From assembly GCA_015059285.1 (NCBI GenBank), contig SVAS01000001.1:68217-132216 (forward strand): DNA of 64,000 bases, written 5' to 3'. A program made the position numbers and the translations under genes. The number at the start of each line of letters is the position of its first letter. The first letter of the stretch is position 1. This document shows positions 39 through 63,621 of this stretch, in pieces. The DNA comes from Bacillota bacterium. GTDB taxonomy: Bacteria; Bacillota_I; Bacilli_A; RF39; UBA660. Under the pieces are notes generated by a model, which worked only from the letters and a program-made list of their open reading frames with translations, was not told where the DNA came from and searched no databases.

Positions 39-395
39 ATGAAAGAAGAAGAATTAGAATATTTAGCAAACACATTATATGAACAAGAGCGTGAAAGAAT
101 TAATAATGCTCATTGGGCTGATTTAACGTTAGATGAAATGGAATTAATTGAAGATAAAAAGAAAAAGGTAGAGTATAAAAAAGAACAAAGAAAATTTCAT
201 ATTCATATTATTAATCCCTTAGCTAATTCAGTACCCCGAAAATTCAAATTTTCTGTACCCGATGAAAGTCTAACTTATCGTATTATGATGAATGATTATA
301 TGAAATTTTTCTATGGTAAGGGAATGACAAGAGACCAAATTATTGAAATGATGATTAAAAATAGAACTATTGTTAGTCGTAGAAAGAATAAATAG
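39..395 (+). CDS. hypothetical protein (118 aa, charged, Lys/Glu-rich)
   Basis: ORF with GGTGA RBS about 6 nt upstream and a TATAAT -10 box at positions 11-16; no recognisable motif. Confidence 0.4.
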   Translation: MKEEELEYLANTLYEQERERINNAHWADLTLDEMELIEDKKKKVEYKKEQRKFHIHIINPLANSVPRKFKFSVPDESLTYRIMMNDYMKFFYGKGMTRDQIIEMMIKNRTIVSRRKNK

Positions 396-6731: not shown

Positions 6732-6789
6732 TATAATAATAAATAATTATTTAAAAACGAAGAAAAAGAGTAGTAATAAGTAACTTTAT

Positions 6790-6948
6790 TTAAAGAGAGA
6801 AAGTGGTTGGTGAAAACTTTCATTAAAGTCTTATGAACTTGCTTTGGAGTTTGATCCGCTTGTAGCGTTAAAACATTTGAGTGCATAAGTATTATGAAAT
6901 AAGGTGGTACCACGGGTAAAACTCGTCCTTATACATAATACTTTTTTG
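6790..6948 (+). promoter_or_regulatory. T-box riboswitch leader (Leu specifier CUU) upstream of leuS
   Basis: Stem I start agagagaaagtggttggtgaaaac, T-box motif aaggtggtaccacgg at 6901-6915, downstream U-run; candidate specifier context gaaCUUg/gtCUUa. Confidence 0.8.
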
Positions 6949-7307: not shown

Positions 7308-10127
7308 ATGTTTAATCATAGTGAAATAGAAAAAAAATGGAGAGAATATTGGGAAGAACACAATACTTTTAAAACTGATGTATGGGACTTTTCTAAACCA
7401 AAGTTTTATGCATTAGATATGTTTCCATATCCATCAGGAGTAGGTTTACATGCAGGACATCCTGAAGGATATACCGCAACTGATATTGTGTCTCGTATGA
7501 AAAGAATGCAAGGATATAATGTACTTCACCCAATGGGATTTGACTCTTTTGGTCTTCCTGCTGAACAATATGCAATAAGCACTGGAAATCATCCAGATGG
7601 ATTTACTAACGATAATATTAAAACTTTTAAAGAACAATTAAAATTATTGGGTTTATCTTATGATTGGGATAAAGAAGTATCAACTTGTGATCCAAATTAT
7701 TATAAATGGACACAATGGATATTTAAAAGGTTATATGAAGATGGACTTGCTAAATACGTTGATATGCCTGTAAACTGGTGTGAAGAATTAGGAACTGTAC
7801 TTGCTAATGATGAAATCATTGATGGTAAAAGTGAAAGAGGAGGATATCCTGTTGTTCGTAAAAATATGAAACAATGGGTTATAGATATACCTAAATATGC
7901 TGAAAAACTATTAGATGGTTTAAATGAAATTGATTGGCCAGAATCAACTAAAGAAATGCAAAGAAATTGGATTGGTAAAAGTATAGGAGCACATGTTAAA
8001 TTTAAAGTAAAAGATACTGATAAATCATTTACAGTATTTACTACTAGATGTGATACTTTATTTGGTGCTACTTACTGTGTTTTATCACCAGAACATGAAC
8101 TTGTAGATTTAATTACAACTAGTGATAAAAAAGAAGAAGTAGATGCTTATAAAAAGGTATGTGCTACTAAATCAGAAATGGAAAGAACAGAGCTCAATAA
8201 AGAAAAAACAGGTGTATTTATAGGAGCATATGCTATTAATCCTGTTAATAATAAAGAAATTCCTATTTGGATTTCAGATTACGTTCTAGCAACCTATGGA
8301 ACAGGAGCTATTATGGCAGTTCCTGCTCATGATGAAAGAGACTATGAATTTGCTAAAAAATTTAATATTGATATTATTCAAGTATTAGAAGAAGTTACAG
8401 GAACTCCTCATGAAAACGAATCTACAAAAAATAGTATCGTAGCTATTTTATATGATGAAAAAAACAATAATTATTTAACAATCAATTGGGGTAATTTAGG
8501 TGGTAGATTATTTATTGGGGGAAGCATTAAAGAAGGTGAAACACCTTTAGAATGCGCTATTAGAGAAGTAAAAGAAGAAACAGGCTATGTAAATATAGAA
8601 TTATTACAAGAATTACCTAAAATTAATCATCATTATTATGCTTATAATAAAGATAAATATTTTAATATTGAAAGTACTGGTTTTGTTTTCAAATTAGTTA
8701 ATGATGAAAAAATAGAACAAAACTTAGATGAAGATGAAAAATTCACTGTAGAATGGGTTTCAGAAGAAACAGTAAATAAAGAAATTACTGAACAATTACA
8801 TAAAAAGACTTATGAATATTATTTAAATAATGGTGCTATGTGTGGAGATGGTATTCACATTAATTCTGACTTTTTAAATGGTTTAAATAAAGAAGATGCT
8901 ATAAATAAAATGACTGAGTGGCTAGAAGAAAATAAGTTTGGTAATAAACAAATAAATTATCGTTTAAGGGAATGGATTTTTGCCCGTCAAAGATATTGGG
9001 GAGAACCAATACCAGTAGTTCATTTTGAAGATGGAACAAGTGCATCCATAGACGATTCTGAATTACCTTTAGTACTTCCAGAATTAGAAGATTATAGTCC
9101 AAGTAAAAGTGGAGCATCTCCACTTGAAAAAGCAACTGATTGGGTAAATGTAGAAATAGATGGTAAAAAAGCAAAAAGAGAAACTAGTACAATGCCTGGT
9201 TCAGCGGGTTCTAGTTGGTATTTCTTAAGATATATTGACCCACATAATGAAAATGCAATAGCAGATAAAAAACTATTAGAACATTGGTTACCAGTAGATC
9301 TTTATGTAGGTGGACCAGAACATGCAGTAGGTCATTTACTTTATTCTAGAATGTGGAATAACTATTTATATGATATAGGAGTTGTTCCAGTAAAAGAACC
9401 ATTTAAAAAATTAGTACATCAAGGAATGATATTAGGTGAAAATGGAATTAAAATGGGTAAAAGATATCCAGAATTTGCTGTTAACCCTAATGACATTGTA
9501 AAAGAATATGGTGCTGATACATTAAGGCTTTATGAAATGTTTATGGGACCTTTAGAAGCTGATAAACCATGGAGTAAAAAAGGTGTTGAAGGAGCTAGAA
9601 GATTTTTGGATCGTATATATAGACTATATACAGAAGAAAATAAAATTCAAGAAACACAAAATACAAATTTAGAAAAAATCTACAATCAAACAGTTAAAAA
9701 AGTAACAGAAGATTATGAAACATTAAACTTTAATACAGCAATTAGTAGTATGATGATATTCGTAAATGCAGTTTATAAAGAAGACATATTCCCAAAAGAA
9801 TATGCAGAAGGATTTGTTAAATTATTAAATCCAGTAGCCCCTTACTTAGCTGAAGAATTATGGAACTTATTAGGTCATAATGATACAATTGCATACGAAT
9901 CTTGGCCTACTTATGATGAAACTAAAATTGTAGATGAAACTTATACTATGATTGTACAAGTTAATGGTAAAGTACGTGGAAAAATAGAAGTTTCTACTGA
10001 TACAACAAATGACCAAATGGAAGAACTTGCTAAAACAAATGAAAATGTTATTAAAAATATTGAGGGAAAAGAAATTGTTAAAGTAATTGTTGTTCCTAAA
10101 AAATTAGTTAATATTGTAGTAAAATAA
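7308..10127 (+). CDS. leuS: leucyl-tRNA synthetase with inserted Nudix hydrolase domain
   Basis: Aligns end to end with B. subtilis LeuRS ([12 protein letters not shown] motif, KMGKR KMSKS motif), but about 145 extra residues lie between FEFAKKF and [14 protein letters not shown] and contain the Nudix box [23 protein letters not shown]. Confidence 0.95.
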
Positions 10128-10159: not shown

Positions 10160-10212
10160 ATTTATGTTGTACTTCTGTTCTAAATAATAAAAGTATGTAT
10201 AATAAAACTTGT
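10160..10212 (+). promoter_or_regulatory. conserved promoter of pilin-like paralog 1 (extended -10 TGTATAAT)
   Basis: tttatgttgtacttctgttc...gtatgTATAATaaaacttgttagaataggagtg is nearly identical to the region upstream of paralog 2. Confidence 0.6.
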
Positions 10213-22813: not shown

Positions 22814-23029
22814 TATTATTACCTCCTCTCTATAAGAGATTTGGTAGACACCCAACAGTTAAATATTTCTAACAACATTATACCACTTGTCTATGTTCAA
22901 GTGAATTAAAATAGTTAATTATTTGTGAAAATATTAAAATACAAATTGGTATTTCAATATTTGTAAAATTGTGTTATAATATAAGCAGTTTAAAGGCAAA
23001 GACGAAGAAGTAGTAATAAAATTAATTAT

Positions 23030-23212
23030 TTAAAGAGAGTTAGTGGTTGGTGAAAACTAATAATAATATTTTATGAATTCATCTTCAGAGCTTTATATAC
23101 TAAATATATAACGGTAACGCGTTACAGTTTTAAGGCAAGTTGATAGACTTGTAAATTAAGGTGGTACCACGTAAACACGTCCTTATTGGATTGTGTTTTT
23201 TTTAATAATTAG
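23030..23212 (+). promoter_or_regulatory. T-box riboswitch leader (Phe specifier UUC) upstream of pheST
   Basis: agagagttagtggttggtgaaaac stem I start, gaaUUCa specifier context, T-box aaggtggtaccacg at 23158-23171, T-run; extended -10 TGTTATAAT at about 22968-22976. Confidence 0.8.
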
Positions 23213-26649: not shown

Positions 26650-26679
26650 AAGTCTCTAGATTTTCTAGAGATTTTTTTA
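26650..26679 (+). terminator. pheT terminator
   Basis: tataaagtctctagattttctagagattttttt hairpin plus T-run. Confidence 0.75.
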
Positions 26680-26740
26680 TTTGCAATTTATGTTGTACTT
26701 CTATTCTAAAAAGTAAAAGGATGTATAATAAAACTTGTTA
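26680..26740 (+). promoter_or_regulatory. conserved promoter of pilin-like paralog 2
   Basis: atttatgttgtacttctattctaaaaagtaaaaggaTGTATAATaaaacttgttagaataggagtg is nearly identical to the region upstream of paralog 1. Confidence 0.6.
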
Positions 26741-26756
26741 GAATAGGAGTGGGAAA

Positions 26757-27863
26757 ATGAAGAAAAAAGGTTTCACGTTAATTGAACTATTAGCAGTAAT
26801 AGTAATACTAGCAATAATAGCGCTTATAGCAGTACCAGTAATAATGAATATTATAAGTAGTGCAAGAAAGAGCTCGTTTGAGGATACTGCATATGGAATA
26901 ATTAGTGCCGGTGAATTATACTATGCTGAAAAGTTGCTTGAACCAAATGGAATGACTAGTGATGCAGAATTTACATTTACAAATGGAAGAGTTACTCCAA
27001 CAGGATTAAATGTAAAAGGTTCATTACCAAAAAGTGGTTCAATGGTAGTAACAAAAGAAGGAAAAATAGCAATCGCAATAACTAATGGAGAATTATGTAT
27101 AACAAAAGGATATGATGATAGCAAAATAGAAACATTAGAAGAATTTGAAAGTTGTGACTTACCAGCAAAAAAATTAAGTGAGCTTGTAAAAACAAATGAT
27201 TTTGCGGAAAGTGTAGATGCGTGTGCGACGAGCGGAACATGTTCATCAGGAACGCCATTTGCAATCGAAGTAGCCCCTGGAAATATTCAAAATTTCTATG
27301 TAATCAGTGATGTAAATAATGTAGTAACACTAATTATGGATAGAAACATTGGTAATACAGTGGCTTGGATTACTCAAGGTGATTATAATGACGATGATTC
27401 TTGGGAAGTTTGTTATGAAGAAGGTACTATAGAAGAGTGGTGTGAATATGGAAATAGTAATAAAGGACCAATAACAGCATTAAATTACTTAGAAATACAA
27501 ACATCAGGATGGACAAATATAGAGGCAAAGAATTACACATTAACAGATGATAATACAACACCAAAATACACAATTGAAAGAACAGGAGCTAGAGCAAGAA
27601 TGTTAACCAAAACAGAAGCGTTAGCAGTAGGATGTAGTGGATGGTATGACGGAGATGAAGCTACATGTCCAGACTGGTTATATGGTAATTTAGATGATAA
27701 TGCAGTTCCTTGGGGTTACTGGACAAGTTTTGCTGATGCGGACACTACTCACCTCGTTTGGTTTGTAGAAAATGATGGTTCTATGAACTTAACCGACCCG
27801 GAATATGGCTACTATGATGGCTACTACTATGGTGTGCGCCCAGTTATTGAAGTTTCAAAATAA
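26757..27863 (+). CDS. type IV pilin-like protein paralog 2 (368 aa)
   Basis: MKKKGFTLIELLAVIVILAIIALIAVP; C-terminal motifs TLIMDRNIGNTVAW, NSNKGPITALNYLE, GARARMLTKTE, CPDWLYGNL, YGVRPVIEVSK. Confidence 0.85.
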   Translation: MKKKGFTLIELLAVIVILAIIALIAVPVIMNIISSARKSSFEDTAYGIISAGELYYAEKLLEPNGMTSDAEFTFTNGRVTPTGLNVKGSLPKSGSMVVTKEGKIAIAITNGELCITKGYDDSKIETLEEFESCDLPAKKLSELVKTNDFAESVDACATSGTCSSGTPFAIEVAPGNIQNFYVISDVNNVVTLIMDRNIGNTVAWITQGDYNDDDSWEVCYEEGTIEEWCEYGNSNKGPITALNYLEIQTSGWTNIEAKNYTLTDDNTTPKYTIERTGARARMLTKTEALAVGCSGWYDGDEATCPDWLYGNLDDNAVPWGYWTSFADADTTHLVWFVENDGSMNLTDPEYGYYDGYYYGVRPVIEVSK

Positions 27864-27873
27864 TAAATTTATA

Positions 27874-27904
27874 AAGAATAGTAAAATTTACTATTCTTTT
27901 TTTA
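27874..27904 (+). terminator. terminator after paralog 2
   Basis: agaatagtaaaatttactattct hairpin plus T-run. Confidence 0.75.
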
Positions 27905-27989
27905 TTTAGAAGGAATTTATAAATAAAAGATGTATATTATTAGTAACATATTTTCACAACTCCCTTAATAAAATTATAGGGGTGAGACT

Positions 27990-35800: not shown

Positions 35801-36259
35801 ATGGAGAAATTTAATCGAACACTTCGTGGCTATGATCCAGAAGAAGTAAATGCTTTTGTAGATCAAGTCATTGGCCAAGTTGAAAAGATGGTTAGTGAAG
35901 GTAAACTTAAAGATGCTAAAATAAAAGAACTAAAGTCTTTAGAAGTAGAAAATGTACGTTTAAAAGAAAAAATTGCACAATATGAACGTATGGAAGGAAC
36001 TTTAAATAAAGCTATATTAATGGCCCAAAAGACTTCTGATCAAATAAAGACTAATGCTCATAGAGAAAGTGAAATTATTTTAGAAGATGCTAAACGAAAT
36101 GCTAGTCGTATTGTTAATGAAGCTTTACTTAGAGCTGAAAAAACAGAGATGGAAGCAAATATGTTAAAACGTAATATTAATATATTTAAACGTCGTTTAA
36201 GAAGTATTATCGAACAACAACTTGAAATGGTTAATGATATTGAAAAAGTAGATTTTTAA
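35801..36259 (+). CDS. divIVA: DivIVA-domain protein
   Basis: FNRTLRGYDPEEVNAFVDQV N-terminal DivIVA motif, coiled coil. Confidence 0.8.
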   Translation: MEKFNRTLRGYDPEEVNAFVDQVIGQVEKMVSEGKLKDAKIKELKSLEVENVRLKEKIAQYERMEGTLNKAILMAQKTSDQIKTNAHRESEIILEDAKRNASRIVNEALLRAEKTEMEANMLKRNINIFKRRLRSIIEQQLEMVNDIEKVDF

Positions 36260-36294
36260 AACAGATGATAGAGACGATATACAAATTAGTCTTG

Positions 36295-36462
36295 CTAGAG
36301 AGTTAGTGGTTGGTGGAAACTAATGAAGAAGGTTGTATATAGATCACTCTAGATGTTTCTAATATAGAACGGTGACGCGTTATAGTTTTGAGTGTATAAT
36401 TTTTATAAAATAAGGTGGTACCGCGGGTAAAACTCGTCCTTAATTGGATGAGTTTTTTTGTT
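36295..36462 (+). promoter_or_regulatory. T-box riboswitch leader (Ile specifier AUC) upstream of ileS
   Basis: agagagttagtggttggtggaaac stem I start, tagAUCa specifier context, T-box aaggtggtaccgcgg, terminator actcgtcc/ggatgagt plus U7. Confidence 0.85.
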
Positions 36463-48193: not shown

Positions 48194-49336
48194 ATGAAAA
48201 TACTTAAAAAAGATAATCAAGAACTTGACGTAAAAAAAATTAATGAAGTTGTTGGAGTGTCTAAAAGGATTCTTAAAATAGCTTATATTTTGTTTATTGT
48301 TTTAGCTATCTATGTTTTTATTAAGGTAAGCAAAGAACTAAATATAATGAATTTTTTAATAACACTTTTGAAAATAGTTTCACCACTATTTATTGGTATT
48401 GTTATAGCATGGCTATTTAATCCGATTGTTACATATTTACAAAAAAAAGGTATGAGAAGAGGTTTAGGAGCAACACTTTCATATTTTGCATTAGTTGGTT
48501 TATTAACTATTGTAATTTGGTCTATAGTGCCAACCTTATCTGAACAAATAAATGATTTTGCTGGTATGATACCACAATTATTCGATACTATAAAGGAGTG
48601 GATTGATACTATTTTTGAAGGATTAAATAATATTGAAAGTTTTGATGCTCTTGCTATCAAATCCGATTTATTTAAAGCCATTGAAGAATTTGGGGTTAAT
48701 TTAACTAATTCACTTCCAACGATGGTAGTTAATATTATTAGTTCATTGTTTTCAGGACTTGGTACAATTTTAATTGGGTTAGTGATAGGATTTTATTTAT
48801 TAATTAGTGTTGATGGAACTGATAATCTAATTAATTTATTACCTAAGAAGATGCAAGAGACAACTCGTGATTTATTAACTGAAATAGATGGTTCTTTTAG
48901 AAGTTTTGTTCAAGGGGCGCTTTTAGATTCAACATTCGTATTTATTATTACATCTATTGGATTTTCTTTAATAGGATTAAAAGCACCACTATTCTTTGGA
49001 CTTTTCTGTGGAATTACTAATGTTATTCCATATGCAGGACCTTATATAGGTGGGGCACCTGCTGTTATAGTAGGTTTTTCACAAGGAATTCCAACAGGAA
49101 TATTAACTTTAGTGGTAATTGTTTTAATTCAATTTTTAGAAGGTAATTTCTTACAACCTTTAATAATGAGTAAAACAACTAAATTACATCCTGTTACAAT
49201 CATGTTAGGTCTTTTAGTCTTTGGTTATTTCTGGGGAATTATTGGTATGGTTATTTCAACTCCAATAATTGCTGCTTCTAAAGCAATTTTGATGTTTTTA
49301 GACGAAAAATATGATATACTATCATTTAGTGATTAA
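48194..49336 (+). CDS. AI-2E family transporter (UPF0118/PerM)
   Basis: 8 TM topology and conserved Gly-rich C-terminal half typical of AI-2E. Confidence 0.7.
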   Translation: MKILKKDNQELDVKKINEVVGVSKRILKIAYILFIVLAIYVFIKVSKELNIMNFLITLLKIVSPLFIGIVIAWLFNPIVTYLQKKGMRRGLGATLSYFALVGLLTIVIWSIVPTLSEQINDFAGMIPQLFDTIKEWIDTIFEGLNNIESFDALAIKSDLFKAIEEFGVNLTNSLPTMVVNIISSLFSGLGTILIGLVIGFYLLISVDGTDNLINLLPKKMQETTRDLLTEIDGSFRSFVQGALLDSTFVFIITSIGFSLIGLKAPLFFGLFCGITNVIPYAGPYIGGAPAVIVGFSQGIPTGILTLVVIVLIQFLEGNFLQPLIMSKTTKLHPVTIMLGLLVFGYFWGIIGMVISTPIIAASKAILMFLDEKYDILSFSD

Positions 49337-49371
49337 AGCGATGAAGAAAGAAAGTAGAATAATTTGTTTTT

Positions 49372-49530
49372 AAAGAGAGTTAGTGGTTGGTGGAAACTAA
49401 TAAATAAATTATTTGAAAGCTACTTTCTGAGTATAGTAAAAACTATCGGAAAAATCCGTTATCAAAATTAAGAACAAATTAGGATGGTACCACGGTTTTT
49501 TCGTTCCTAGAAAATAACCGTGGTTTTTTT
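49372..49530 (+). promoter_or_regulatory. T-box riboswitch leader (Ala specifier GCU) upstream of the dNMP-kinase-like/cmk/alaS operon
   Basis: agagagttagtggttggtggaaac, gaaaGCUa specifier context at 49429-49431, T-box ggatggtaccacgg, terminator ccacggtt...aaccgtgg plus U7. Confidence 0.85.
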
Positions 49531-52519: not shown

Positions 52520-52640
52520 GATTTATGTTATAGAAACCACTTTAATTATAGTTTTATGTATAATAAAAATGTCAACGATAGCAAAATAAAACATAATGTT
52601 ATTGACAACAAAATATTTATGTTATAAAATTATTTTAGAA
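52520..52640 (+). promoter_or_regulatory. conserved dual promoter and long leader of pilin-like paralog 3
   Basis: extended -10 TGTATAAT at 52557-52564; TTGACA-16-TATAAA at 52602-52629; repeated tTATGTTATA motifs; about 85% identical to the region upstream of paralog 4. Confidence 0.6.
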
Positions 52641-52718
52641 CAATATGTTATACAAGGTAAATAAATGTATAAAAGGATAAAAGGTTGTTCAAAATAAGAA
52701 AGAAGGAGTGGAAAGAAA

Positions 52719-53711
52719 ATGAGACAAAACAAAAAAGGATTTACTTTAATTGAATTACTAGCAGTAATAGTGATACTAGCAATAATAGCACTAATAGCAG
52801 TACCAGTTATAATGAATATAATAAGTAGTGCAAGAGAAAGTGCATTTAAAGATACTGCTTATGGACTTGTGAAAGCTGGAGAGTTATACTACGCAAATCA
52901 ATTACTGACAACAGGTGGGATGATAGAAGATAAAGTTTTTACTTTTGATGATGGAAATGTTGAACCAACAGGTTTAGATATCAAAGGAAATTTGCCAACA
53001 ACTGGTTCAATGACAATTACCAAAGATGGAAGTGTGATTTTAAACGTTTCAGATGGTCAATTTCTTGCAACTAAAAACGAGCATCAAACTGATGTTGTTG
53101 TTATAAAAGGGAATGTTAGCAAACCTATTCCAAATTCAAATATAATCTCAGACAATAAGTGTGCAGTAGATGAAACTCAAATCTGTGCGGAAGGTACTTT
53201 AATAACTTACAAAGTAAATGATAGTCAAACTTATGACTTTTATGTAATAAAAGATACAGGTAGATTATTAACTTTGATTATGAATAGTAATTTAGGATTA
53301 AATGATGTTTCTTGGAATACTTCTGGTTTTGCTAGTGATGGTCCTACTGGGGTACTGAAAGCTTTAGAAGAACGCACGAATAATTGGACAAATGTAAATA
53401 TAATTTCTGAATATACTTATGTAGATACAAATGGAAATAACCAATATTCAGCCTTTACTAAAACTAATGTTAGATCTAGATTATTATCAAGTACAGAATA
53501 TGATATCAGTAAAACTTGGTTAACTTCAAATTTAGTAAATTATGATGCTTGTGGCTGGACTGAAAATGACGCTTGTGGTTATTGGACTGGAGAATCTATT
53601 TCTAATACTCCTGAAGGTTTTGGTTTATGCCTTACTTCTTATGGACCATATACATGTTCTGGAATGTATGGTATACGTCCAGTAATTGAAGTATCTAAAT
53701 TAGCAAATTAA
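52719..53711 (+). CDS. type IV pilin-like protein paralog 3 (330 aa)
   Basis: MRQNKKGFTLIELLAVIVILAIIALIAVP; C-terminal TLIMNSNLG, WTNVNI, CGYWTG, YGIRPVIEVSK. Confidence 0.85.
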   Translation: MRQNKKGFTLIELLAVIVILAIIALIAVPVIMNIISSARESAFKDTAYGLVKAGELYYANQLLTTGGMIEDKVFTFDDGNVEPTGLDIKGNLPTTGSMTITKDGSVILNVSDGQFLATKNEHQTDVVVIKGNVSKPIPNSNIISDNKCAVDETQICAEGTLITYKVNDSQTYDFYVIKDTGRLLTLIMNSNLGLNDVSWNTSGFASDGPTGVLKALEERTNNWTNVNIISEYTYVDTNGNNQYSAFTKTNVRSRLLSSTEYDISKTWLTSNLVNYDACGWTENDACGYWTGESISNTPEGFGLCLTSYGPYTCSGMYGIRPVIEVSKLAN

Positions 53712-53766
53712 GATGTTTATCAAATAGTGTTAGTGAACAATGATTTGATATGGATAACTGTATAAG

Positions 53767-53796
53767 AAAGGATGATAAAAATCATCCTTTTATAAT
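53767..53796 (+). terminator. terminator after paralog 3
   Basis: aaaggatgataaaaatcatccttttat; the same hairpin core follows the dacF-like gene upstream of paralog 4. Confidence 0.65.
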
Positions 53797-53804
53797 GCCT
53801 TTAA

Positions 53805-54030
53805 TCAAGAAAATTCGTGCGATAAAGTAATCATACTTTCTATAACAAAAGGTAATTCTTTTAAGTATTTTAACTTTACAAATTTTTTAACCCCCCATTT
53901 AATAATATTGTTATCAGAATCATTAACAGAACCACAATGTGGACAAAATTTGTGTTTATAGGTTAAAATTGTTTCAATTACCTTATAATTTTTAATAACT
54001 TTTTCTTCAATGTTATTTAAAATAAATAGA
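53805..54030 (-). pseudogene. probable ISL3-family transposase N-terminal remnant (zinc-finger region only)
   Basis: The minus-strand frame gives NIEEKVIKNYKVIETILTYKHKFCPHCGSVNDSDNNIIKWGVKKFVKLKYLKELPFVIE, which resembles the ISL3 transposase N-terminal zinc-finger region; it has no start codon and no catalytic part. Confidence 0.35.
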
Positions 54031-54498
54031 TTAAGATATTTAATATTTAGTAAATTTTATATATAATTATTATTAGATATGTTTCAGTGTTTGTTTTGTT
54101 GCTTACATTGTATCAGACTAAACATCTTTTTTAACAAAAAATAGTTGAGCGAGATTTTCTAACCAACACTATTTATAATACAACCCAAACAAAACTTCAA
54201 GGCTTGTTTTGTTATAATATGAAGAAAGTACTTCTATAGAAAACCTATTATTCACTTAGTAGTAAGTGAATTTAAAGTTACATAAACTAAAGGTTGATGC
54301 AGTGAGTTTAATTTAGGTGAGTTTATATTGAAAGATGAACCAAATAATGATAAGATTTTTTAAAATAGTAAAGGTCAATTAATTATAATAGATTTAAACT
54401 AGGTACATAATAATGTTTTTTTAATAAATACAAATACTAATTGAAAAAAGTTATTATTCGTGATAAAATGTAGGTGTATTCATAAAGTAGGTGAAATT

Positions 54499-62346: not shown

Positions 62347-62372
62347 AGGATGATTAAATTCATCCTTTTATT
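62345..62372 (+). terminator. terminator after the carboxypeptidase gene
   Basis: aaaggatgattaaattcatcctttt hairpin. Confidence 0.65.
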
Positions 62373-62377
62373 TATGT

Positions 62378-62500
62378 TATAGAAACCACTTCAAATAAAG
62401 TTTATGTATAATAAATATGTCAATGATAGTAAAGTAAAACAATATATTATTGACACCGAAATGTTTATGTTATAAAATTAATCTAGAACAATATGTTATA
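62378..62500 (+). promoter_or_regulatory. conserved dual promoter and long leader of pilin-like paralog 4
   Basis: about 85% identical to the region upstream of paralog 3, including TGTATAAT, TTGACA...TATAAA and repeated TTATGTTATA motifs. Confidence 0.6.
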
Positions 62501-62565
62501 CAAACTAAACAAATGCATAAAAGAATAAAAAGTTGTTCAAGATAAGAAAGAAGGAGTGGAATAGT

Positions 62566-63621
62566 ATGAAGAAAAAAGGATTTACATTAATAGAATTACT
62601 AGCAGTGATAGTAATACTAGCAATAATAGCATTAATAGCAGTACCAGTTATAATGAATATCATAAGTAGTGCAAGAGAAAGTGCATTTGAAGATACTGCA
62701 TATGGACTTATTGATGCAGGAGAGATGTATTATGCAAGTTCATTATTAGAAAATGGAATGACTAGTGATGTAGAGTTCACAATTGAAGATGGAAAGTTTG
62801 TAGGAGAAAACAAACTAGAAGTAAAAGGAGCACTTCCAACAAATGGAAAAATAACAGTAACAAAAGATGGAAAAGTTGCTATTGCTGTAAATAATGGAGC
62901 ACATTGCGTAACAAAAGCAACAAGCGAAAGTGCAATCACAACAGTTAAATATGAAGGAAGTTGTGAATATAAAAAAGCAGCAAATCCAATCATCACATCA
63001 ACTGAGGCATGTATCACAAATGCAAACGAAACATGTAGTGAAGACGCAATAAAAGCAGGAATTGCAGTAAATGTTAAAGTAAACGAAAAAGAAGAAGCAA
63101 AAACATTCTATGTAGTAAAAGACGATGCTACAACTAACACATTAACATTAATCATGGATAGAAATATTGGAGAAACAGTAGCTTGGATTAGTGAAAAAGA
63201 CTATGGATGTGGAGAAGCCGGAGATTATTGTTCAACAAACGAAAAAGGGCCACTAACAGCCTTAACTTACTTAGAAAGTAAAACAAGTAGTTGGACAAAC
63301 ATCCCAGCAAAAACATATACATTAGCAGACGATCAAGGACAATACACAATAGAAAGAACAAATGCAAGAGCTCGAATGTTAACACATGATGAAGCAATAG
63401 ATTTGTTAGGATGTGTAGAAAATGACACAGGATGTCCAGCATGGTTGTATGGGAATTTAGGAACTAGTAACCCACCATTTGGCTTCTGGCTAAGCTCTGC
63501 TCCTGCGGACGATGCTTACTTCGCTTGGTTCGTGGGCAGCGGCGGTGGCGTTGACGACGGCGTCATCACTGGCTTCTCCGGTGTGCGCCCAGTTATCGAA
63601 ATCTCAAAATCTATCATCTAG
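62566..63621 (+). CDS. type IV pilin-like protein paralog 4 (351 aa)
   Basis: MKKKGFTLIELLAVIVILAIIALIAVP; about 65% identical to paralog 1; C-terminal SGVRPVIEISKSII; ATG at 62566 with GGAGTGG RBS. Confidence 0.85.
   Translation: MKKKGFTLIELLAVIVILAIIALIAVPVIMNIISSARESAFEDTAYGLIDAGEMYYASSLLENGMTSDVEFTIEDGKFVGENKLEVKGALPTNGKITVTKDGKVAIAVNNGAHCVTKATSESAITTVKYEGSCEYKKAANPIITSTEACITNANETCSEDAIKAGIAVNVKVNEKEEAKTFYVVKDDATTNTLTLIMDRNIGETVAWISEKDYGCGEAGDYCSTNEKGPLTALTYLESKTSSWTNIPAKTYTLADDQGQYTIERTNARARMLTHDEAIDLLGCVENDTGCPAWLYGNLGTSNPPFGFWLSSAPADDAYFAWFVGSGGGVDDGVITGFSGVRPVIEISKSII

Follow-up and report, generated by a model that had tools for sequence, protein, structure and literature searches.

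The DNA analysed here is a 64-kb stretch (the window, 64,000 nucleotides of contig SVAS01000001.1) from the metagenome-assembled genome (MAG) of an uncultured Bacillota bacterium with a GC content of ~26% and with sporulation genes, and our subject is the family of pilin-like genes that it carries, with one member, P2, taken as the reference. A six-frame motif search found exactly four genes with a prepilin motif in the window, all on the + strand (P1 to P4; Table 1), and these confirm, as full-length genes, the four pilin-like paralogs named in the original prediction, which had been made from the letters alone. Each of the four is solitary with housekeeping operons on both sides: P1 lies downstream of leuS, P2 between pheT and yabP/yqfD, P3 downstream of alaS and P4 downstream of a gene for a PBP5-type carboxypeptidase. 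No pilus machinery genes are encoded within the window.

Table 1. Features of the pilin-like genes in the window, with the median amino acid identity of each P2 segment among 13 paralogs of the same genome (aa, amino acids; pN and pS, proportions of non-synonymous and synonymous differences; pLDDT, predicted local distance difference test score; a slash marks the predicted cleavage site)
Feature	P2 residues	Position	Strand	Description	Median identity
P1		10231-11307	+	358 aa; MBE6144017.1; 10150-11307 with its class A upstream element; class A motif at 10160-10171	
P2 class A upstream element		26676-26756	+	Motif ATTTATGTTGTA (26686-26697), TGTATAAT (26722-26729), ribosome-binding site AGGAGTG	
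P2		26757-27863	+	368 aa; modular type IV pilin-like; identical to NCBI MBE6144034.1; 100% match to homologue P0001	
Leader and alpha-1	1-60	26757-26936	+	Class III signal peptide MKKKG/FTLIE and alpha-1 helix; constant 5' block; pN 0.07, pS 0.48	0.88
Pilin head	61-127	26937-27137	+	Small beta-sheet pilin head; strands 70-127 in model	0.53
Linker	128-166	27138-27254	+	Variable, cysteine-stapled; 44% gap columns; positionally conserved Cys pairs	0.24
C-terminal domain	167-368	27255-27860	+	Predicted C-type-lectin-like domain, ~200 aa, probably distantly related to DUF6273 and Lcl_C (DUF1566)	
Domain core	167-205				0.47
Variable loop 1	206-236	27372-27464	+	Indel-rich (90% indel columns), optional Cys pair; pLDDT 54-62	0.21
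Domain core	237-292				0.55
Variable loop region 2	293-358	27633-27830	+	Optional disulfide loop GC...CP.WLY; 58% gap columns	0.27
C-terminal strand	359-368				0.80
Terminator-like hairpin and T-run		27864-27908	+	Directly 3' of P2 stop; inverted repeat I1, 22-nt arms, 86% complementary	
P3 class B upstream element		52521-52718	+	~200 nt; motif copies at 52521 and 52615	
P3		52719-53711	+	330 aa; 52521-53711 with its class B upstream element	
P4 class B upstream element		62370-62565	+	~196 nt; TTGACA-17-TAAAAT, repeated TATGTTATA boxes	
P4		62566-63621	+	351 aa; 62370-63621 with its class B upstream element	
12-mer ATTTATGTTRTA		10160-10171, 26686-26697, 52521-52532, 52615-52626, 62370-62381	+	All copies upstream of pilin-like genes	

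All four window proteins share the N-terminus MKKKG/FTLIELLAVIVILAIIALIAVPVIM, which has the form of a class III signal peptide, and all four match the Pfam N_methyl model with 32-36 bits (cut-off 21.2; E=6.6e-8 for P2) and TIGR02532 with 33 bits (cut-off 16.3), with nothing else above threshold in any of them. The AlphaFold2 model of P2 (mean pLDDT 89.4) consists of an alpha-1 helix (residues 8-60), a beta head (70-127), a linker (128-166) and a separate C-terminal domain (167-368); pLDDT exceeds 90 over the helix and the strands, which together have the helix-plus-beta-head arrangement of a pilin, and the weak stretches are residues ~210-230 and ~340-360. The prediction is that of a modular pilin, with a pilin module (residues 1-127) joined by the linker to a C-terminal domain that folds independently; modelled alone, the domain reached a pLDDT of 85 and a predicted template modelling score (pTM) of 0.86. 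A profile made from an alignment of 74 homologues matched solved structures through the type IV pilin alpha-1 helix only (MshA, 1.4e-9; PilE1, 2.3e-7; also GspG). Family-wide, the pilin head comes in two sequence types, FVGENKLEV and V.P.GL. On sequence and structural model, the window proteins are predicted to be modular type IV pilins in those features that can be tested.

The prepilin leader would be cut after Gly by an A24 prepilin peptidase, and the pilin part would place the protein within a type IV filament or at its tip, or at a minimum tether it to the cell surface. The alpha-1 helix is invariant across paralogs, which suggests that all of them must fit the same filament or platform. 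A gene for an A24 prepilin peptidase (A24_N_bact and Peptidase_A24) adjoins one for a PilC-like T2SSF platform protein at three of the gene neighbourhoods that were fetched (numbered with the letter L; L172-L174), whose strains share 98.9-99.7% identity with the paralog-bearing loci L165 and L172; L165 and L172 are tied to the organism of the window by exact protein look-up and by one shared MAG. The pair lies downstream of dnaG-sigA, ~6.5-9 kb from a paralog. In L172 (17571-21032) a T2SSF platform protein of 900 aa is followed directly by the peptidase; in L173 and L174 the T2SSF protein has only 609 aa, again with the peptidase directly after it (8484-11091 in L174), and there the shorter gene is preceded by an uncalled gap of ~1 kb, where a frameshift or a variant N-terminus is possible. 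A separate and shorter pilin-like protein of 208 aa, with an N_methyl motif, a divergent alpha-1 helix and a Bact_surface_Ig-like domain, is encoded between two family paralogs in L168 (14241-14867).

The C-terminal domain of P2 gave one significant match in Foldseek, to the IgA peptidase (IgAse) of Thomasclavelia ramosa (9qa6; E=1.7e-4, TM-score 0.46), followed below significance by the C-type lectins CD23, MGL, MBP-C and Ly49C; the same search with the full-length P2 model was uninformative except for IgAse. The N-terminal domain of IgAse has itself been described as C-type-lectin-like and as resembling the DUF1566-containing C-terminal domain of Legionella Lcl (PMC12237041; PMC11162425). 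Neither Pfam Lcl_C (PF07603) nor DUF6273 (PF19789) matched the four window proteins or their isolated C-terminal domains, even at E<=10. Relatives come closer while staying below the cut-offs (P0097, 25.3 bits against 34.9 for Lcl_C; P0045, 14.8 bits against 23.5 for DUF6273), more distant relatives found with a profile of the C-terminal domain pass DUF6273 with 28.0, 31.4 and 25.5 bits (cut-off 23.5), and several paralogs have been named "DUF1566 domain-containing protein" by NCBI. The domain is thus probably a divergent C-type-lectin-like domain of the DUF6273/DUF1566 type, judging by profile and model together; it is not filed as a member of either family because the Pfam thresholds are missed. 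At E<=1e-3 the domain profile retrieved 2563 cluster representatives, mostly proteins of ~350 aa with an identical layout. Other homologues (P0063, P0073, P0080, P0092, P0127, P0129 and P0131) have two to five tandem C-terminal domains, Big_2 domains between the copies, or no pilin N-terminus, and these architectures indicate that the lectin-like module is itself a mobile building block.

The C-terminal domain of Lcl (DUF1566, PDB 8Q4E) and the N-terminal domain of IgAse appear to share a C-type-lectin-like core with the domain found here, although sequence similarity is marginal; the present domain has disulfide pairs where the C-terminal domain of Lcl has none, and its fusion partner is a pilin, where theirs are a collagen stalk and a protease. 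Binding of glycosaminoglycans is a feature of Legionella Lcl itself. By prediction, the lectin-like module of the pilins would bind ligands, probably glycans, and paralogs with different surface loops would supply different binding specificities.

Comparison of the 13 paralogs, in P2 residue numbering, places strong conservation at residues 1-60 and in the last 10 residues (Table 1), so that the conserved ends of the original prediction hold only in part; its single variable middle does not, since three variable segments (the linker and the two loop regions) interleave with semi-conserved cores, and the last ~150 residues, which had been said to align well, contain some of the most divergent sequence in the protein (the two loop regions). 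The peptide that had been quoted as the example from P2 is residues 133-172 (27153-27272), just upstream of the span 27280-27863 to which the mosaic pattern had been assigned; that span encodes residues 175-368 and falls within the C-terminal domain. The peptide quoted as common to P1 and P4 is exact in P1, but only 27 of its 38 residues are identical in P4. Identity at the 5' end, put at 85-90%, was measured as slightly lower, at 79-90% (mean ~83%) over the 150 nt from the GFTLIE codon, and as 82-94% among the window paralogs over the first 105 nt. As described, the paralogs are not alike in their cysteine patterns. Cysteines are nevertheless always paired, and two pairs are positionally conserved even inside the supposed variable middle, with further pairs in the variable loops (the cysteine columns 327 and 338, for example, are occupied in 6 of the 13 paralogs); such pairing is in keeping with an extracellular protein stabilised by disulfides. 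Where the sequence is variable, both the full model and the model of the C-terminal domain have their low-pLDDT loops.

Over codons 1-42, the rate of non-synonymous divergence (dN) is 0.02-0.03 and that of synonymous divergence (dS) 0.7-1.2 for all pairs of window genes except P3-P4 (dS 0.25). Across the 78 pairs of the 13 paralogs, the median pS is 0.48 in the leader and alpha-1 helix and 0.48-0.61 in the other regions, while the median pN runs from 0.07 to 0.45 between regions. With high dS and low dN, the conservation of the 5' end reflects constraint at the protein level on the leader and alpha-1 helix, not homogenisation. The proposal that the 5' end acts as a homogenised substrate for recombination is therefore not borne out, its synonymous sites being as diverged as those elsewhere and the longest exact nucleotide matches among the four window genes only 13-28 nt (family-wide maximum 89, median 26). 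Amino acid constraint, rather than age, sets the pattern of conserved and variable segments: the scaffold elements (leader and alpha-1 helix, head strands, domain core and terminal strand) are under strong purifying selection, and the linker and two loop regions have near-neutral non-synonymous rates. In the variable regions dN/dS, calculated by region, never rises above ~1, and positive selection is not demonstrable at the present divergence.

The relatives of P2 in the databases number in the thousands. Exact-sequence look-ups placed many paralogs on one contig of 575,737 bp in a single NCBI MAG (accessions MBE6144017 to MBE6144905), and 13 distinct copies, including the four of the window, could be assembled as DNA from the fetched neighbourhoods; the other nine are Q46 and Q39 (L164), Q45 (L165), Q53 and Q342 (L166), Q06 (L167), Q21 and Q358 (L168) and Q32 (L169). 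The loci of P2 and P4 recovered from other samples have 100% DNA identity to the window, and on this basis the loci were treated as one genome. With P0035 and P0064 (long contig), P0007, P0023, P0030 and P0033 (a contig of 105 kb), P0019 and P0124 added to the 13, the source MAG contains at least 21 paralogs. All 13 sequenced paralogs are complete, solitary and set between unrelated housekeeping genes. No terminal inverted repeats or target-site duplications were found around the gene units, and there is thus no sign of a mobile cassette. In a scan of genome contigs, no identity above 47% was seen among matches that span most of the first ~130 residues, higher values being confined to the N-terminal helix, and a scan of metagenome contigs gave distant relatives only. 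The best non-identical match, P0002, was set aside: it is not syntenic, and it adjoins IS110 transposases. No description of a large, dispersed and recombining family of lectin-tipped pilins was found in the literature.

Upstream elements of the paralogs fall into two unrelated classes, class A of ~85 nt (P1, P2, Q53, Q342, Q06 and Q32) and class B of ~200-235 nt (P3, P4, Q46, Q39, Q45, Q358 and Q21), which would permit differential expression of paralogs. Five copies of the 12-mer ATTTATGTTRTA are present in the window against 0.29 expected by chance, all of them on the + strand and each ahead of a pilin-like gene; relative to the ATG, the class A copies sit at -71 and those of class B at about -197 and -104. 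The 12-mer is probably a family-specific site for a regulator or sigma factor. Related boxes, TATGTTATA and ATGTATAA, recur within class B. The class B element is 80-95% identical among its seven paralogs (in the window and in L164, L165 and L168), that is, more conserved than the synonymous sites of the genes, and it contains TTGACA-17-TAAAAT, a TGTCAAT/ATTGACA palindrome and a conserved GAACAA...TTGTTC pairing. The upstream leaders gave no convincing RNA structure (z-scores 0.03, -2.3, -0.03 and -1.5) and no match in Rfam, and a simple sigma-70 promoter scan did no better than on shuffled sequence. Terminator-like hairpins were looked for up- and downstream of P2 (Table 1). An inverted copy of the upstream family motif, TTTCTATAACAAAA, lies downstream of P3 at 53837-53850, within ~790 nt 3' of that gene (53712-54498) that have no called gene and in which tblastn found no pilin fragment.

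That the paralogs are mosaics formed by recombination among themselves, as the original prediction had supposed, is upheld by tests of several kinds and by alleles from other strains; divergence along the genes is non-uniform and breakpoint signals are present. In a pairwise homoplasy index (PHI) test of our own implementation, on gap-free informative sites with 2000 permutations, the 13 paralogs gave z=-13.7 (473 sites), the set without two close relatives z=-12.7 and the four window genes z=-5.2, with none of the 2000 permutations as low in any of the three. A Sawyer-type test found a shared fragment at p<0.001 in 37 of the 78 pairs. Informative sites of the quartet P1-P4 prefer different splits in different parts of the gene: 12|34 in codon columns 1-62 (10 sites, versus 0 and 2 for the alternatives), 14|23 in columns 63-220 (35 versus 14 and 10) and 13|24 in columns 321-416 (11 versus 3 and 5); the heterogeneity is significant (chi-square 37.6, 10 d.f., p=4.5e-5) and was reached in 0 of 5000 permutations. 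Synonymous divergence steps 2-4 fold at breakpoints: between P4 and Q45 it is 0.26 in columns 1-223 and 0.73 in the rest; between P4 and Q46, 0.34 in columns 1-329 and 0.74 in the rest; between P1 and P4, 0.44 in columns 70-215 and 1.38 and 1.58 in the flanks; and between P3 and P4, 0.51 in columns 1-83 and 1.66 in the rest. The youngest shared tracts have a dS of 0.18-0.34.

The two upstream classes are incongruent with the similarities of the coding sequences. When promoter class, head type, linker type, beta-core type, mid motif, disulfide loop and C-tail were scored as modules, all four combinations were present for 13 of the 21 module pairs. Segments have repeatedly moved between loci. 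One pair of modules behaves otherwise: linker type 1 (C-E/T-Y-K/R-K...NPII), carried by P1, P4, Q46, Q45 and Q53, is perfectly linked to the C-tail extension K-T/S-I-I ~200 residues away, in contrast to the free re-assortment of most module pairs, which hints that linker and C-terminal strand are in physical contact or co-adapted.

Alleles from other strains carry the same signature at a finer scale. P0123, which clusters with P1 at 90% identity, departs from it by 11 substitutions that all fall in residues 59-74, and over this 18-residue patch it is identical to a paralog from the same MAG, P0030 (MBE6144905.1); a patch so confined, and identical to another paralog, is what a short, non-reciprocal conversion tract leaves behind. 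In P0266 the first ~131 residues are those of P0051 and the remainder those of Q45 (P0045), with no mismatches on either side. P0047 is likewise a hybrid, 100% identical to Q45 at nt 1-744 and to P0009 from nt 774, the switch falling inside a 30-nt identity that encodes KGPITALNYLE. Its gene (L172, 10001-11032, on a contig of 97.6 kb, ENA ERZ27248370) has switched flanks as well: the upstream 10 kb are those of the Q45 locus (99.7% to L165) and the downstream 10 kb those of the P0009 locus (98.9% to L173), with dnaG-sigA and the PilC/PilD genes close by. This could be a reciprocal crossover with chromosomal rearrangement or it could be a metagenome mis-join; against a mis-join, the shared stretch is just 30 nt and the contig was assembled at k=141. 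Gene orientation would survive an inversion between copies that lie on opposite replichores. The reciprocal product was not found among 120 homologues. Nearly all open reading frames of at least 100 aa in the window are on the + strand and GC skew is positive throughout, which places the window on one leading-strand replichore; all four of its paralogs are co-oriented with the leading strand, an arrangement that bears on the chromosomal outcome of crossovers between them.

The explanation that we favour, and consider probable, is that these genes form a large and dispersed family of complete, modular type IV pilin genes with lectin-like heads, between which segments have been exchanged by recombination at an occasional tempo. 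Homologous exchange between paralogs at separate loci overlies the pattern of constraint, as seen in short non-reciprocal patches (P0123), in 5'/3' chimeras (P0266) and possibly in reciprocal crossovers that swap flanks (L172), and it re-sorts promoter class, head type, linker type and the types of lectin loop; crossovers would fall in short conserved blocks, of which alpha-1, TLIMDRN, KGPITALNYLE, ARARMLT and GVRPVIE are candidates. On this proposal exchange would be occasional, on a population or evolutionary timescale, with no programmed high-frequency switch. A more elaborate form of the proposal, which we put forward only tentatively, is that the at least 21 genes are an archive for one filament, under two promoter classes, whose modules are continually re-sorted by crossovers at short blocks, some of them reciprocal and rearranging the chromosome, to give a combinatorial repertoire of adhesins on type IV pili.

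Several observations weigh against the favoured explanation. The window proteins fall short of every Pfam threshold for a lectin domain; no T2SSE assembly ATPase was seen in the ~200 kb examined; the strain chimeras (P0123, P0266 and P0047) all come from metagenome assemblies, in which mis-joins between paralogs are conceivable, chiefly for L172 with its switched flanks; and the dS values are near saturation and were obtained by a simple Nei-Gojobori method in a strongly AT-biased genome.

Class III signal peptides are not restricted to pilus subunits: archaeal sugar-binding 'bindosome' proteins use one for export and membrane anchoring. The proteins described here might similarly form a surface layer of lectins, with the leader serving export and anchoring only. 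They are large for pilins, there are at least 21 paralogs with a nearly invariant alpha-1 helix, no assembly ATPase was seen in the sequence examined, and relatives of the C-terminal domain occur with non-pilin N-termini and in multi-copy proteins. We nevertheless think a surface layer unlikely, as the genes of a prepilin peptidase and a PilC-like platform protein stand side by side and as the packing of pilins into a filament requires just such an invariant Glu5 and alpha-1 helix. Modular pilins of similar size in Streptococcus sanguinis, moreover, are proven components of filaments (PMC8179133). Were the proteins a surface layer after all, the evolutionary conclusions on recombination would be unchanged.

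Those S. sanguinis pilins, PilB with a vWA module and PilC with a lectin module (Raynaud et al. 2021, PMC8179133), are close counterparts in design, both far larger than classical pilins and both made, as here, of a class III signal peptide, a small pilin module, a linker and a grafted ligand-binding module, likewise in a monoderm host. The module differs: a C-type-lectin-like domain of the DUF6273/DUF1566 kind is predicted here, in place of vWA or a ConA-like lectin. The genes of the present family lie one by one among housekeeping operons and not in a pil locus, and instead of one or two paralogs there are at least 21, which recombine among themselves.

Programmed antigenic or phase variation of the Neisseria pilE/pilS type, in which an archive of cassettes converts an expressed gene with the 5' end as anchor, was considered because the likeness is real: a pilin whose gene is constant in its 5' part and variable in its 3' part, surface exposure, mosaics from paralogous exchange with a strong recombination signal, and strain alleles with patches copied from paralogs. 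The two systems part at the level of the genes. Neisseria has one expressed gene and promoterless, 5'-truncated silent cassettes with very frequent unidirectional conversion, whereas here none of the 13 sequenced copies is shortened, each has its start codon, ribosome-binding site and conserved promoter-like element, and no truncated or promoterless copy was found in the 64 kb (best stray tblastn match, E=0.28). Nor are the sequences in flux: each of P1-P4 recurs with an unchanged protein sequence on 20-23 contigs from different samples, the 90%-identity clusters comprise just one to four variants, the P2 and P4 loci are the same to the nucleotide wherever they were compared across samples, and the part of Q45 shared with the L172 hybrid has no differences between two strains whose flanks differ by 0.29%. 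Even the youngest shared tracts show the dS given above, the 5' synonymous sites are not homogenised and offer exact matches of no more than 28 nt, and no simple-sequence or invertible-promoter repeats were found. We judge a programmed switch very unlikely, and the analogy that had been drawn with gene-conversion-driven families of variable surface proteins does not extend to genes that are all complete, without silent copies in the window and stable across contigs.

Closer in population genetics, on our comparison, are the dispersed families of complete adhesin genes that recombine in Neisseria (opa) and Helicobacter pylori (babA/babB). In these, too, many complete, separately promoted and scattered genes combine a conserved framework with hypervariable segments and form mosaics between loci, and the present family resembles them more than it does pilE/pilS. 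The proteins themselves are different, since opa and bab products are outer-membrane beta-barrel or Hop proteins, often phase-variable by simple repeats, whereas the carrier here is a predicted pilin, without repeat tracts and with two classes of promoter and leader.

Old duplication followed by independent divergence under uneven constraint, with no exchange at all, would account for the broadly flat synonymous divergence, for non-synonymous change that follows the structural elements and for variable segments that are the low-confidence loops of the models. It is a still less probable explanation, given that PHI rests on the compatibility of sites and not on their rate and lay below every permutation, that the best quartet topology shifts along the gene, that the dS steps are specific to particular pairs, that promoter class is incongruent with coding modules, and that there are alleles differing from their parent only by a patch identical to another paralog. 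Least credible of all is that the genes are targets of a diversity-generating retroelement (DGR): DUF1566/CLec domains are recurrent DGR targets (PMC6642488, PMC11661182), such proteins have the same general fold, which tolerates massive loop variation near the C-terminus, and the most variable part of the present domain is near the C-terminus, but no template-like extra copy of the paralog 3' ends was found in the window and the overlapping L170 and L171, no reverse transcriptase is among the Pfam annotations of ~200 kb of neighbouring genes, and the variation here comes from paralog expansion and recombination with abundant indels and whole-module swaps, which DGRs do not make.

Modular pilins have been recognised only recently, and those described so far are one or two minor pilins within a pilus operon. 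A small AT-rich genome with many dispersed, recombining pilins with predicted lectin heads suggests that pili of gut or rumen bacteria may serve as a display platform for binding specificities, and offers a concrete system for the generation of an adhesin repertoire without dedicated hypermutation machinery; a combinatorial repertoire of pilus adhesins, if true, would be a mode of diversification distinct both from pilE/pilS conversion and from DGRs. For annotation, current Pfam models overlook the C-terminal domain, conservation of the 5' end in families of this kind is not by itself evidence for gene conversion, and the paralogs may be hotspots of chromosomal rearrangement or of metagenome mis-assembly.

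Elsewhere in the window, Rfam matched no RNA family near the paralogs, its sole matches being four T-box leaders (6751-6933, 22990-23187, 36256-36444 and 49332-49511) that precede operons for aminoacyl-tRNA synthetases or related functions. The leucyl-tRNA synthetase (7308-10127, 939 aa) has a precomputed Pfam match to NUDIX (PF00293) within its synthetase domains, which would be an unusual insertion if real.

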